A stretch of DNA of 64,000 nucleotides from Escherichia coli (lineage in GTDB: Bacteria; Pseudomonadota; Gammaproteobacteria; Enterobacterales; Enterobacteriaceae), in the NCBI RefSeq assembly GCF_045037415.1, contig NZ_CP173438.1. One strand, 5' to 3'. Shown here piece after piece: positions 18,001 to 27,000 of the stretch. Position numbers: made by a program. The number at the start of each line of letters is the position of its first letter. The first letter of the stretch is position 1.

Positions 18001-21000
18001 AAGCTGTTGATTTTGGTACGCCCAGGCGACGCCCGACCACAACCTGGGGTAAATGTTCTTCAAAGTGAAGACGTAAAGCTTCAGTGATCCAAGTCCGGTG
18101 TTTCATACGATAGTGTCCATTAAAAATGATGGACATTATTTTTGTAAAACCGGAGGAAACAGACCAGACGGTTTAAATGAGCCGGTTACATGTAATCCAT
18201 ACTCATCCAAGGTTTAATTCTGACACAATAAGAAAATATGGAAAGTCTCGCTCTAGAGATGGGGAGAGGGATATTGAAGTGTATGATATTCCAAGAACTG
18301 CCGGAGATATCCTCGTAAATGGATTTTCCAGTGCAAACTGATAACAAATTCGAAGTCATTATCTGCAACAAGATTGATTGATGTAGGGGATATGTTAGAG
18401 CATTATAATGCTCAAGGATTTGGCGTGATGACATCTGCGCCAATTGATGCGACACTATATGATAAACTGGATGCTATTTGCAGTAAGTGTAAAATAGAAC
18501 AAATAAATTTTTCAGTATTAGAGTCAGAACGCGCACTATATTATGACGATATATTAAGATGCCGTTACTTTGGTAAATAACATAAAATTAATCAATATGG
18601 TAATATATCAGTTGTAATTGATCGAAACAAAGCACATAAATGCCATCTTAGAAAGATGGTGTTTTTTAAGCATATAAAATATATTTTCTATAAGATATAG
18701 GGCAAACTAAATTTCTTGACTTCTATGATGGACTAACTAGATATACATGCCGCCAGTTTTTATAAAACGACGGCATATATAATCATTTATATATCTTTTG
18801 ATTTTATTCGTAACCACTCATGTTGATCTAAACCTATTCTTGACAGATTAGCAACAATATCAGTTGTTATTTTTTGCGCGTACGTTGTTTTTATTTCCCC
18901 GATCCATTTCAATACTTTTGGAGTAGATATTTTTTCAACGAGTAAAGGAACGAATGAGATATAGTCAGTATTAACTAGATTGTTCTTTTTCCCTATGATG
19001 ACACCGTTTCCATTTTCGACTCCAAATGAAAATGAAATAATATTAGAAGCTTTTGCCGGCATTTTAATTTTATAAAAACCGCCATATTCATCTTCGATTA
19101 ACAAATTGTAATTATTATCGTCCAGTGTTCCCCTGAGGAATAAAAAATCGGCTTTTTCATGCAATCTGACGCTATCACATAATGGTTGTATGCATAGATA
19201 GACAAAATTATATGCATCTAAAAGTAAAGTTCCTTGTTTTAAGGACACATTATCTATATGAGAATGATATCTTAAACTCCTGCGCGTGATTTCCAGAGAG
19301 CATAATTGCATTAACTTTTTATCTTCTTCACCATCTTGGCTTAAGTATTCCTTTTTACCTAAAGATGCGTGTTCAATAGCGTGTTGAATTTCTTCTAAAG
19401 AATCAGCAGAGAGTATATTCCTTAGATGTTCTACTGATAAGTCTTTTTGTTTTTTTCCAGTTAATAGAAAATTCTTACAACCATTTTCTGCATAGTGAAA
19501 AATAGGCCAATGGGATAAGGAGTTTTTGCTTAGAGATTTCTTTAAGTTTTCACTTATTTGCAATATTGATCTTATTTCTTCAGAAATTAAATCTACTGCA
19601 TAATCATGAGCATTTTCATAAGCATATGCCCTTGACTCCTTGGATTTTATTAAATTTAAGATGTGGGAAACATATGCAGTGTCTAATTTATTATTATATT
19701 TTGTTAATATCCCATGGGTTTTTTCTCTTATTTCAGAAATGCAAGAGAGTGCGGCGTTGGATAGCAACCCAGCTGTAAGGTTAGTGAATTTTTTTATTAA
19801 CACATTTGGAAGATCTTTTTCATAAACGTCTTTACTAATAACAACTATACACCATTGTTCGAGTGCATAGTTATCTTCAATAAAAATACTATCATCATTT
19901 TTTATTACGCTACGGTATGTTTTCTTTAACTCATTGTTCAACTTAGTTATAACAGCAGTAACATGTTCACCAGTATAAATAGAAAGAAGACGTAAACGTC
20001 CTCCAGAATTTATATCTGAAACGATTATCGATTTTATTATTTCAATAGCAAATTGCCCACTATCGCTTTGCATATCCCAGTCAAGTATTGTTATATCTGC
20101 CTTGTGGGATGATGCTGTAATTATATCTCTTTCTTCAACATTAAAACTCTTAGCTAATAATCCGCAACAAGCAATACCATCTTTGGCGAAAGCTTCTGCT
20201 AGAGCTTGGTAATCAAAAGGATGGTTTTTTACCTTTGCTTTTGATTTAGTTGATTCTATCCTTGGGGATGCTGATGCTGTTATTATTGGTGTAGGATCAT
20301 CGTCGGGATCAACTAAAGCATTAATATCTTCGTCTGTAGGGAAAGTATCACTACCAGCTCCAAAAGACATATTGTCATCTACAGCAACTACAGAATGTAA
20401 AAAACGGCGAACGCAGTCTTCAGAAAGTTTATGAAAATCAGTAGAGCTTGTCATTTATTTATATCCGCTATTCACTTGTTTCTTCTGATGGCTCAATAAT
20501 AAAGAAAGCACCCTGTTCAGGAGTGTAATCATCCAATCTTATAGTAAATCCATCTCGAGATAAACACTCTTTGGAAATGAATAATCCCATTCCACGCCCT
20601 CCTGTTTTTCGTGTAAATCCCATATCAAATATTATATCTCGATCTCTAGTTGAAACACCGGGACCAGTATCACCAATAACAAATCCTGTTTCAGTAGCAT
20701 CAAGTATAAGTCTTTTTTCTCCAGTTGTTTTCCCAAGCCAGTATATTGCGTTATCAATTAGATTTATAAAGACAGGGTAAATGGTTGATGTGTAAGTTAC
20801 AATTTCTTGATTAACAAACTTTGAGGTAGTGAATAATTCAATTCCTTCTTTCTCAAGACGATCATCGAATACATCTCTGATAAATTCTAAAATGGCAGTT
20901 CCAGTTATATTGGTTTTAGAGCGACTTAAACGTCTTGTCAATGGTGTAAAGGTTTTTAAATAACCATCTAAGTGATCAAAACTAGTTCTGATTTTTTGGT

Positions 21001-24000: not shown

Positions 24001-27000
24001 ATCCCATAGTTCTCAGCATTGGCTATAAAAGATATATAGTTATACTCTAACTCTTTAAGTAGCTTAATAAACTCCTGAAATGGGCCTTCTTTTTCTTCAT
24101 CAATTTTTTGCATTCCAGGAACATTTTCAAGCATAATATATTCAGGAAGAAGTTCTCTAATAAAACGATGAGTTTCATTTAGTAGATTTCTCCTTGAGTC
24201 GTCACTAGTTTTATTTTTATTCTGTTGCGAAAATGGTTGACATGGTGCACATGCACTCAGTAACAAAGGCCGTTTAGCTTTAATATCAATGATGTCGGAG
24301 ATATCTTGAGGTTCGATTTTCCTAATATCATCTTGGATGAATTTTGCATCAGGGAAATTAGCTTTAAATGTTTCTGATGCTTGTTGGTCAATATCTAATC
24401 CAAGCTCGATATCAAAGCCAGCCTGACGTAGCCCTTCACTGGCTCCACCACAGCCACAAAAAAAATCTATAACTATCAATTTGATACCTTCTTTGAACTA
24501 AATAAAACAACTCGAATAAGTTGATATTTTAAATAAAAATAATTGGTATGGATATGAACTTTGGTCACGCTACCGCCCTGAGGTCATGGCCATCCCCAGA
24601 CCTTTTAAAGGGATTATGAACAACACCCAGCCGACGTTCAACGGTGTTACCCATACATATCACAAAGTTAGTTAATTGGTTGGTCGTAAATTGACCTAAA
24701 ATGATTGAGGGCAATGCAAAAATCATTGGGAAATCAGGCGACACAGATGTTCGGAAGAGACTGAATGTTAAAAATATAGAATGTATATTCTCAAAAAAGA
24801 GATATTTCATTACATTTTATATGTGTATAGGAAAGTGAGATTGGCGAATCACCTCCCAATCATCCCGCCAGCGCTCCATTCAGCGCCACGCCAACCCTCA
24901 CTCCAGCCCACGTCATCGCCCCCAGCCAGAATGTCGGCAACACCAGAAACATCAACCTCATCACCAGATTGATAATCACGTCATCCTGCGTATTCTGGAT
25001 CCCGGCTAAATTCCTGCTACTGTGGGTATCGCTGTTGTAGAGCACATCCAGCAGCCAGCTATCAAGCCACCGTGCCAGTTCCCACCAAAAGGTGAGGAAA
25101 AATAGTGCAAACTGCACAAACGTCAGCGTCATCACTACTTTCACATCCCACGCCGAACAGAGCGTTATCAGCGGAATACAGATCACCAGCGCTATTTGCA
25201 GCTGCGCCTGTACCATCGGTAGTGCCTAACGCACGCTGTCGAATGCCGTACATGCCGCTATGCTGCCGAGGATATTTCTAGCGCCGGATGCCAACCGGGT
25301 GGCGGCATTGGCGACGGTGCCATCAACGTTACCGCCATAGCTTGGATAAACGCGCCCATTCTGCGATACCTGCATATTTCGTTCACTGACCCGCGAGCGC
25401 AGCACGGCCTCTTCATACACTACCTGCGACTGGTCGATTTTTTTAAACGCCGTCCAGATATCTAGGGCAGGAAGTTGCAGTAGACGGGCTTTCAGCCCAA
25501 CGGTGTCGTCGGCCCACCGCTGTTTACAAGTGGGATAGCCGCCCGCGCCCGTATCGGCCAGCCCGGCATCGCGCGATGCACTGTACGGCCAAGCACTGTG
25601 TGGTGAAAGCGCATGGTCGGAAAAGGCCTGTTCAGCTAACCAAGCACATCCCACCATCACAAGAATCGCCAGAAAACCAAACTCAGTCAGAATAACTCTT
25701 CCTGATTCAGGCTTTGCTCCTGCATTATGGCTACCACTATTGTTTGCCTGCACGTATCATCTGATAACGGTTAATTAACTGATTTAGCGCCATTTCAGCC
25801 TGTTTTTGCTGCTGTTCACTGCCATTCTGGTTACGGACTTCACCGTAGCGACGTAACTGCTCTTCCGCCGGGATATGCCGGTTAAAAGCCTGCATGATGC
25901 CAAACACCTCCGTTTTCAGTTCACTGACCGTCATGTATTTTCCCCGCTGTTCATCCTGACGGTTCAGGCGCTCAGCCAACTGCTGTAAGCGGATCATGCC
26001 TTCGTTCCAGCCCGTCATCGCCTCTTCCGGGAGCGCACGACTCCTTACACTCTTCTGCCAGTTATCCACCATTTCCTGAACACGGGGATTGCCGGGGACA
26101 AGAACCCTCAGTTGCTGCAGCAGCTGCGCACTGCACCGCAGGTTGTATGCTGGAGGTAATTCTGCCAGTCGCGTTATCTGCTGACCGGAAAGGGTTATCC
26201 AGTGCACTCAGGGCAGATACCGGATTCAGGTTAATTTTTTCAAACAGGGAAGCATATACGCTGTCGCCGGTATGCGTTTCAGATACCACACTCTCTGCGA
26301 CGTTCTTTTCTTTCTGTACAGACATCAGCATTTTCTGTAAGCGTACAGCGAGGGCCGTATTGACGGGGATGTGTTATTCAGCTGGCAGTGCTATGCGCCA
26401 CGGAAGCAGTTCGCTGACCCGGTTGACCGGCCAGTCTGCTATGACGGCAAGCACATGGCGAAGGTAGCTTTCTGGATCCACGTCATTCAGTTTGCACGTC
26501 CCGATCAGGCTGTACAGTAGCGCTCCCCGCTCACCACCATGGTCAGAGCCGAAGAACAGGAAGTTTTTACGACCCAGACTGACCGCCCGCAGGGCATTTT
26601 CAGCGATGTTGTTGTCGATTTCCACCCAGCCATCGTTCGCATAGTACGTCAGTGCCGGCCACTGGTTAAGTGCGTACGCGAACGCCTTCGCCACCATCAG
26701 GCTGGACAGGGGACTTTCACCCCCAAGCTGCTGAACATGCCCGGCACACAAAGAAGATCTCGGCTCAGTGGCCGGGATTAGTTATACAATTATCTGATTG
26801 ATTTTTAATATATCTTTTCTTAAATCATCGTTAATATCTGACGGTTCTAGCTGGTTTATAAGTTGCCTTATTTGGGTAAAGGTACTTTTCTGATCTTTTA
26901 GATCTTCTCCTTTTATCGTTGATAAAGCTGCAATTAGTTCACCATCGTAATATTCACCCGCTAACGGCTCTTTAGTTAGAACTTCCAACACTCTTGGCAT

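Follow-up and report, generated by a model that had tools for sequence, protein, structure and literature searches.

A methylase, histidine-kinase-like and receiver-protein cassette of Escherichia coli whose output domain has a predicted MazF/CcdB-like fold

The window analyzed here, a 64,000-nt stretch of Escherichia coli DNA (contig NZ_CP173438.1, assembly GCF_045037415.1; all coordinates are window based), carries a three-gene cassette composed of a C5 DNA cytosine methyltransferase (gene 1, the methylase), a large protein with the signatures of a histidine kinase (HK; gene 2, the HK-like protein), and a protein with the receiver domain of a response regulator (RR; gene 3, the RR-like protein). 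Four features seen in the sequences, namely, a receiver domain, an adjacent HEF_HK kinase, conserved phosphorelay residues, and a neighboring C5 methylase, place the cassette, with very little doubt, in the HEF_HK/Response_reg_2 plus C5-methylase family, as an ordinary member. We read it, with about an even chance of being right, as a restriction-modification (R-M)-like defense or addiction module that acts by phosphorelay to a toxin-like effector. An open reading frame (ORF) map returned exactly three consecutive minus-strand ORFs, all with intact frames, separated by 4 nt (genes 1 and 2; 23429-23432) and 13 nt (genes 2 and 3; 20455-20467), and the GC content of the cassette is 0.29-0.39, versus 0.45-0.58 in the flanks on both sides. 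These data agree with an earlier note on this DNA, which had described three tightly packed minus-strand genes, more AT rich than their flanks. The genes and the domains of their products are as follows.

23433-24479, minus strand: gene 1, C5 DNA cytosine methyltransferase, 348 aa from a TTG start, with every catalytic motif intact
20468-23428, minus strand: gene 2, HK-like protein, 986 aa
23039-23359, minus strand: gene 2, N-terminal GHKL ATPase (HATPase_c_3), aa 24-130, paraMORC type (Pfam)
21989-22756, minus strand: gene 2, conserved middle region, aa ~225-480 (alignment of 12 orthologues)
21119-21988, minus strand: gene 2, variable helical (coiled-coil-like) linker, aa ~481-770, low conservation
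20921-21118, minus strand: gene 2, HEF_HK dimerization/phospho-acceptor (DHp) domain, aa 771-836 (PF19191), invariant H780-E781-F782
20486-20782, minus strand: gene 2, HATPase_c catalytic ATP-binding domain, aa 883-981 (Pfam, PDB sensor kinases)
18787-20454, minus strand: gene 3, RR-like protein, 555 aa
19831-20403, minus strand: gene 3, receiver domain (Response_reg_2), aa 18-208 (Pfam and alignment)
19483-19821, minus strand: gene 3, all-helical domain, aa ~212-324 (AlphaFold2 helices, pLDDT ~90), conserved polar G229, N233, R243, D258, and H264
18835-19302, minus strand: gene 3, beta-rich domain with a MazF/Kid/CcdB-toxin-like predicted fold, aa ~385-540 (AlphaFold2 and Foldseek)

The RR-like protein (WP_016238529.1 in RefSeq, where it is labeled "response regulator receiver domain") had been taken in the earlier note to lack a recognizable domain, a view that does not survive a Pfam search, which places Response_reg_2 (PF19192) at aa 18-198 (4.1e-29). 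The same domain was matched in all 127 of the diverse representatives (~25% identity) from which we gauged conservation. Among these homologues D26, D120, D125, and K208 are invariant, D27 is kept in 95% and T161 in 89%, and the phospho-acceptor pocket of D26, D27, D125, T161, and K208 is, as read from the alignment, intact. None of the 127 carries a DNA-binding or other regulatory output domain recognizable by Pfam, and for want of such a domain the cassette is not a canonical regulatory two-component system.

AlphaFold2 modeled the full-length RR-like protein with a predicted local distance difference test (pLDDT) value of 80.9, and residues 208-555 with a value of 82.5. Beyond the receiver, the model shows a helical domain at ~212-324 followed by a variable insert of alpha/beta type (~326-384), and then a beta-rich domain (~385-540), which ends in a long helix, and a conserved tail. 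Foldseek ranked the MazF proteins of E. coli and M. tuberculosis first among its matches to this model (E 0.016, probability 0.99, template modeling score 0.56-0.60), and the output domain is thus predicted to have the MazF/Kid/CcdB beta-barrel fold with a C-terminal helix. Conserved residues lie both in the beta domain (G408, C421, Q423, C426, D427, R430, W517, K522, Q527, R539) and in the tail (R539, G541, E546, W547, R549). No PemK or CcdB match to the C terminus was found in Pfam, even at E<=10, a profile search of the PDB with the RR-like alignment returned nothing for the same region, and hhalign of the C-terminal domain against four approximate MazF/Kid/CcdB sequences gave a probability of 0.3%. 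Since there is no sequence-level signal, the likeness to MazF and CcdB is a fold resemblance of a predicted structure and not a demonstrated nuclease. A PD-(D/E)xK nuclease reading of D427...E520xK522 was also considered and dropped, because E520 is not kept once Bacteroidota and other distant sequences are added and because the fold matches are MazF-like rather than restriction-endonuclease-like.

The C-terminal module is widespread. A profile of the C-terminal 348 residues drew 1662 representative clusters (50% identity, many phyla), 965 of them at E<=1e-30; nearly all of the best 150 of the 1662 are 520-600 aa long, with the match beginning near residue 200, and the only AFDB50 matches were "Response receiver domain-containing protein" entries, again from many phyla. 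These lengths and matches indicate that the receiver and the C-terminal module form one fixed unit. The receiver protein diverges faster than the kinase, at 34% vs 51% between the E. coli and Yersinia-type cassettes.

The HK-like protein (RefSeq WP_001063091.1, "ATP-binding protein") contains HATPase_c_3 at aa 24-130 (2.5e-11), HEF_HK (PF19191) at aa 771-836 (1.5e-25), and HATPase_c at aa 883-981 (5e-10), which bears out the anatomy proposed for it in the earlier note, that of a dual-GHKL protein with a MORC-like and a histidine-kinase-like module. Across 12 orthologues spanning 39-96% identity, every catalytic signature is invariant (12/12): the Bergerat motifs of the N-terminal ATPase (E28/N32/D35, D56xGxG60, G101xxG104xG106), the H-box H780-E-F, and the N-box (N889/D892/N893) and G2 box (G944/G946/G948) of HATPase_c. 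The C-terminal 230 residues align with solved sensor kinases, with matches down to 2e-17 in a profile search of the PDB, and the GHKL head has weak matches to MutL and Hsp90; the PADLOC REase_II model matches aa 10-114 only. The middle region (aa ~225-480) contains the strongly conserved motifs GTHF, LLGFTNT, FRD, DHH, GQFSG, GGLYIYRDGIRILPYGD, and EKAGREGFxENK; it has no Pfam, NCBIfam, or PDB sequence match, and a PDB profile search with the HK-like alignment returned nothing for aa 131-480. As regards an S5-fold transducer, this strongly conserved stretch follows the GHKL domain, with no profile or PDB match to it, and we presume it to be the transducer and/or the DNA-contacting part of the protein. 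For the poorly conserved aa ~481-770 the sole matches are apolipoprotein-like or designed helical proteins, as would suit a long helical, perhaps coiled-coil, linker. Two PHROG families of unknown function also match gene 2 (phrog_8137, 1.7e-100, aa 385-979; phrog_6203, 2e-16, aa 4-124), and prophage-borne relatives of the kinase without a receiver partner may exist.

Gene 1 (RefSeq WP_000635307.1, DNA cytosine methyltransferase) matches the C5-methylase models MTase_II of PADLOC (2e-95) and TIGR00675 (2e-48), and its PDB matches are M.HaeIII, M.HhaI, and DNMT1. Motifs I (FCGCGG), IV (PCQPFS), VI (ENV), VIII (QRRKR), IX (REASRLQTFP), and X (GNAVP) can all be read in its translation, and with these intact motifs and model matches the earlier assignment of a Dcm-type methyltransferase is secure. 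Its PADLOC matches to DruM and DrmMII were put down to generic C5-methylase similarity.

The order of the three genes is widely kept. Scanning genomes with the RR-like protein, as an alignment of 53 sequences, and reading the result with tblastn and ORF maps gave 14 loci, 13 of them informative, and a C5 methylase is present at all 13. In 12 of the 13 the order is methylase, HK-like, and RR-like gene, with the methylase upstream; these loci include Citrobacter, Buttiauxella, Yersinia, Serratia, Lelliottia, Pseudoalteromonas, Aliiglaciecola, three Hymenobacter species, and Sphingobacterium, and the 13th, that of Acinetobacter apis, differs in having its C5 methylase, of 635 aa, downstream. The neighborhood check proposed in the earlier note therefore finds the trio kept together from Enterobacterales to Bacteroidota. 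No fourth gene is conserved across the informative loci, and no small adjacent antitoxin-like gene is kept.

Some relatives add a repair gene to this core. One member of ~25% identity is arranged as DNA_methylase / HATPase_c_3-HEF_HK-HATPase_c / Response_reg_2 / Vsr, and two more distant members carry Vsr or an HhH-GPD glycosylase directly 3' of the receiver gene; genes of these two kinds follow the receiver gene on the metagenome contig carrying P0160 and at L019 1793-2266, L017 2511-3206, and L018 2107-2802, and the glycosylase of L017 overlaps the receiver gene by 28 nt. Vsr and HhH-GPD proteins are T:G-mismatch repair functions, expected where 5-methylcytosine (5mC) is really made, and as far as gene order can tell their placement matches the pattern of methylase-restriction-Vsr operons, in which the HK/RR pair would hold the place of the restriction component. 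The Hymenobacter cassettes are followed by a same-strand ORF of 141-142 aa (L011 11884-12312; L012 11879-12304) that Pfam rules out as a Vsr and that has no Pfam or NCBIfam match.

Pairwise identities further indicate that the methylase is exchangeable. Between the Pseudoalteromonas and Aliiglaciecola cassettes (L004 vs L009) the HK-like proteins are 71% and the RR-like proteins 54% identical, with only 37% between the methylases, and the methylase nearest to that of Pseudoalteromonas is the one from the Sphingobacterium cassette, at 50%. Judged by these identities, methylases are swapped between closely related kinase/receiver pairs. That closely related HK/RR pairs stand beside unrelated methylases argues that the pair is not hard-wired to one DNA motif; it may be the methylase that supplies the sequence specificity, in which case it would be needed for activity.

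The family has been described before. Bellieny-Rabelo, Pretorius & Moleleki (2021, Genome Biol Evol; PMC8011034), starting from three co-induced Pectobacterium genes, defined PF19191 and PF19192 from this same family, and they report that the Pectobacterium homologues are up-regulated in planta. They counted 664 receiver-type homologues in 628 strains, E. coli strains included, found a GHKL protein no more than 3 genes from the receiver in 91.6% of 644 loci, typically with a DNA_methylase gene upstream and often a Vsr downstream, and described a predominant "group 1" architecture of HATPase_c_3, HEF_HK, and HATPase_c (174/222 sequences); they linked the family to the paraMORC ATPases that Iyer et al. 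described in 2008. Their elements share with the window cassette the Pfam families, architecture, adjacency, upstream DNA_methylase, and paraMORC relationship, and no structural difference separates the two. The paper found no known domain in the RR-like protein beyond the receiver, left its C-terminal two thirds unannotated, and speculated about a regulatory role over R-M systems, whereas the toxin-like predicted fold and the apparent methylase swapping point to an effector role, rather than regulation, for the RR-like protein.

The family has also been nominated for defense. Table S10 of the DefensePredictor paper (PMC13092281, Science 2026), which covers 3,000 E. coli strains, lists WP_016238529.1, the very accession of the window gene 3 product, under the class "Predicted novel defense gene", at a mean log-odds of 13.9, and a homologous pair, 2CM2, peaks at a log-odds of 14.8, which is not exceeded in the portion of Table S6 examined. 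The earlier note's suggestions that the combination was undescribed, and by implication unnoticed as a defense candidate, thus give way on both counts: the family, its link to C5 methylases, and its paraMORC relation are all in PMC8011034, and DefensePredictor lists the gene 3 product and tested homologous pairs. The cassette is known as a predicted entity, without a name, and the claim of an undescribed system is already met by the literature. The note's statement that it is not a named system stands, as scans with PADLOC, NCBIfam, and PHROGs returned no named system and PADLOC-DB v2.0.0 matches only the methylase and the N-terminal GHKL part; genes 2 and 3 thus fit no protein model specific to BREX, DISARM, Druantia, Dnd, Detocs, Mza, or other systems, as far as that release represents them. 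Our literature searches found no experimental follow-up of the PMC8011034 family beyond the DefensePredictor test.

Several known systems invite comparison, among them the paraMORC/MORC GHKL ATPases (Iyer 2008, PMC2292703), the BbrUII/HgiDII type II enzymes (NF050001), Detocs (Rousset et al. 2023), the MazF/Kid/CcdB toxins, and MADS of P. aeruginosa. Like the paraMORC proteins, the HK-like protein is a GHKL ATPase with intact ATP-binding motifs encoded beside a cytosine methylase, with Vsr in relatives; paraMORC1-5, however, either occur with helicases or end in C-terminal domains of nuclease, TIR, or unknown type, and none is described with a histidine-kinase core and a receiver partner in PMC2292703. 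The first ~120 residues of gene 2 match NF050001 at 4.6e-20, and both lie beside a methyltransferase gene, but only profile positions 8-119 of 659 are matched, at 71.7 bits against a cut-off of 550, and the remaining enzyme has no counterpart in the window. Searches of Pfam, NCBIfam, and PADLOC found no nuclease family in genes 2 and 3, only the GHKL N terminus resembling BbrUII/HgiDII, and with no recognizable nuclease domain the cassette is not a classical type II R-M system. Likeness to the MazF/Kid/CcdB toxins is confined to the predicted fold of RR-like residues ~385-540, with no sequence similarity, and the RR-like domain differs from those toxins in being fused to a receiver, in having no paired antitoxin, and in its insertions (~155 vs ~105 residues). 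MADS resembles the cassette as a multigene, methylation-based self/non-self defense with a kinase-annotated component; it differs in its eight genes, N6-adenine methylase, and separate specificity subunit, and has no HEF_HK/Response_reg_2 pair. Both MADS and the Shedu-type paraMORC3 (VcSduA) were ruled out as the identity of the cassette, being different systems. Detocs reportedly combines a tetratricopeptide repeat (TPR) sensor, a receiver-only buffer protein, and a purine-nucleoside-phosphorylase effector, with no methylase. In concept it is the system most like the window cassette, with a soluble histidine kinase that senses infection and phosphorylates a receiver with a C-terminal immune effector, whereas the window cassette has a GHKL ATPase sensor, no buffer protein, a predicted MazF/CcdB-like effector, and an obligatory methylase, so that the two have no parts in common.

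The surroundings of the cassette are those of a decayed mobile element. We read the flanks from the RefSeq record of strain 4/0, in which the cassette stretch (18787-24479) is 100% identical (window coordinate = locus coordinate + 6786). One flank holds an IS3 pseudogene and an IS66 TnpA fragment, the other a TraG-N pseudogene together with fragments of VasL and IS66, followed by cdiI/cdiA; a conventional RR/HK pair and hlyCA lie further away. Within 12 kb of the cassette the annotation shows neither vsr nor a restriction gene, in keeping with the earlier note, which had reported insertion sequence (IS) debris around the cassette and neither kind of gene beside the methylase. Two further features concern its mobility.

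18190-24676, no strand assigned: mobile segment, 92.6% identical to Citrobacter and matched over most of its length by Buttiauxella; comprises the cassette, its upstream region, and a convergent-gene remnant
24864-25620, minus strand: TraG-N-like pseudogene (RefSeq), 86% identical to Citrobacter L002 4790-5546

The Citrobacter counterpart of the pseudogene (L002 4123-5604) is intact and lies just upstream of the cassette, beside the integrative conjugative element (ICE) marker protein TIGR03755. The 86% identity of the pseudogene to an intact gene next to an ICE marker indicates that the cassette arrived as ICE cargo, and we conclude that it is the surviving cargo of a decayed integrative conjugative element, intact while its flanks decayed. 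On the other side, 18200-18580 is the 3' remnant of a convergent gene of ~500 aa that is truncated in the E. coli window and intact 3' of the cassette in both Citrobacter (L002 11877-13379) and Buttiauxella; neither Pfam nor NCBIfam matches it, and only a weak match to the PADLOC candidate PDC-M58A was seen (7e-5). By megablast, 196 of the 5426 complete E. coli genomes (3.6%) carry the 5.7-kb cassette stretch at >=99% identity, 194 of them with at least 80% of the cassette covered. A scan for promoters and terminators did no better than on shuffled sequence, and a small ORF at 24565-24810, 5' of the methylase, was rejected as a controller protein because it looks noncoding and of low complexity.

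By the same RefSeq annotation the window belongs to a uropathogenic-type E. coli island, with the alpha-hemolysin genes hlyA/hlyC at ~7.8-11.4 kb, cdiI at 26782-27168, and the contact-dependent inhibition toxin gene cdiA (tRNA nuclease type) from 27165 onward. The conventional response regulator/sensor kinase pair lies beyond the IS debris, beside a molybdopterin oxidoreductase gene and a cytochrome b gene with a frameshift (14365-16557, ~12900-14200). It is unrelated to the cassette, with which it is confusable in domain scans.

How might such a cassette work? In the R-M-like reading, the methylase would mark host DNA with 5-methylcytosine, an activity suggested by its intact motifs and by the Vsr and HhH-GPD genes of related loci. 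In the HK-like protein, the dimeric GHKL head of paraMORC type may act with the middle region to engage DNA in an ATP-dependent manner and report DNA that is unmodified or foreign, and the protein may use the methylase as its sequence-specificity subunit. A signal would then pass down the helical linker to the HEF_HK/HATPase_c core, where H780 would be autophosphorylated and pass its phosphate to D125 of the receiver; both residues are invariant, and the chemistry is what their conservation suggests. MazF toxins act as dimers. Phosphorylation could switch on the RR-like output, that is, its helical and MazF/CcdB-like domains, perhaps through receiver-driven dimerization, to judge by fold similarity. 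Growth arrest would follow, or nucleic-acid damage, so as to stop an invader or kill cells that lose the cassette. The earlier note had likewise supposed that the methylase marks self DNA and that the ATPase/kinase protein senses and signals to a partner; that partner now has an identity, a receiver with an intact pocket, and H780-E-F proves invariant, and the scheme, still putative, is the best reading and a stronger one than before. A stronger version, which we put forward tentatively and consider somewhat doubtful, makes the cassette a new mechanistic class of methylation-gated immunity, in which the methylase would provide specificity and mark self DNA, a MORC-like clamp fused to the kinase would turn contact with unmodified DNA into His-to-Asp phosphotransfer, and the phosphorylated receiver would assemble an active, dimeric MazF/CcdB-like toxin. 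Such a cassette would amount to restriction-modification in which a phosphorelay to a toxin, and not a DNA endonuclease, serves as the "restriction" arm.

Several observations weigh against defense by phosphorelay to a toxin-like effector. MG1655 carrying pCV1-2CM2 or pCV1-2CMP, homologous HK+RR units, was challenged with 24 phages and scored as defensive = FALSE (PMC13092281). A tblastn search with the receiver protein found no match in 50,697 phage records and one plasmid match; homologues are essentially absent from sequenced phages and plasmids, and enrichment on mobile elements is consequently not general. In PADLOC-DB v2.0.0 gene 3 has no match, and genes 2 and 3 have no model beyond the GHKL N terminus. 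In the HK-like protein we identified no domain for binding DNA or reading 5mC. Finally, the HK+RR clones were viable, which argues against a simple nuclease or toxin that would attack unmethylated DNA independently of the methylase. The published test is itself weak. Its vector was low copy with no upstream promoter and its 4.8-kb inserts held the kinase and receiver only; an insert of that size does not include the methylase, so that the methylase and probably the operon promoter were excluded. A need for the methylase would reconcile the model with both the viability of the methylase-less clones and their lack of defense, and under methylation-gated immunity the omission of the methylase and operon promoter would explain the negative phage result. 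The tested ECOR variant was not located in complete E. coli genomes with a Lelliottia query.

Other explanations must be set against these data. The cassette might be an addiction (post-segregational killing) module, with the methylase as antidote and the HK/RR pair as slow poison, that mainly stabilizes an ICE or genomic island. Its place as cargo by ICE transfer genes in Citrobacter and Buttiauxella fits this idea, as do its survival, alone intact in E. coli while TraG, VasL, and IS genes decayed, its >=99% identity across 196 genomes, the toxin-like predicted output fold, and the failure of a homologous pair to protect against phages. The same anatomy, however, suits defense equally, type II R-M systems do both, and HK+RR clones without the methylase are viable in MG1655 in a promoter-less vector, which is not expected of a constitutive poison; we regard addiction as the main role as unlikely. 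The authors of PMC8011034 speculated instead about a cytoplasmic regulatory two-component system, one that would sense nucleotide or DNA status and control a neighboring R-M system or gene expression, a form of epigenetic signaling. Bona fide HK and receiver signatures and the in planta induction of the Pectobacterium homologues speak for it, yet none of the 127 receiver homologues has a DNA-binding or regulatory output domain, the C terminus has a toxin-like predicted fold, the window and most loci hold no separate restriction enzyme to control, and the cassette is horizontally mobile and AT rich, all of which makes regulation improbable in our view.

Repair is less probable again. In that scenario the cassette would be a MutL/MORC-related system for the repair or surveillance of 5-methylcytosine-linked damage (T:G mismatches) rather than of foreign DNA, and the MutL/MORC-like GHKL head (weak MutL and Hsp90 matches; paraMORC context in PMC2292703) and the Vsr or HhH-GPD glycosylase genes 3' of the receiver gene in distant members would both make sense. 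But Vsr commonly accompanies the C5 methylases of ordinary R-M systems (PMC8011034), the window cassette has none, and a phosphorelay to a toxin-like domain has no obvious repair role. That the cassette is an inert relic, leftover cargo with no current function in E. coli, we consider highly improbable: it does sit amid pseudogenes and IS fragments and in only 3.6% of complete E. coli genomes, but three intact frames with every catalytic motif, near identity in 196 genomes, and tight coupling of the genes are hardly the marks of decay.

An R-M-like module acting by phosphorelay gives the family a sharper and testable hypothesis, in which the methylase must be included in any assay and the toxin-like C-terminal and helical domains are the key sites. 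The toxin-like predicted fold of the RR-like output, the exchange of methylases, and an explanation for the published negative test are modest additions to the literature, to which we also add the invariant H780, D125, and K208 and a gene order that holds from Enterobacterales to Bacteroidota, in some loci with Vsr or a glycosylase next. With 1662 clusters at 50% identity the family is large; it is top scoring in a machine-learning defense predictor, and it has been known in silico since 2021 with a sole, negative, test. If the model is true, one three-gene unit would bring together three well-studied themes: the epigenetic marking of self, ATPases of the MORC type, which clamp DNA and have eukaryotic relatives active in gene silencing, and phosphotransfer of the two-component kind. 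The RR-like protein would be the first response regulator with a toxin-fold output.

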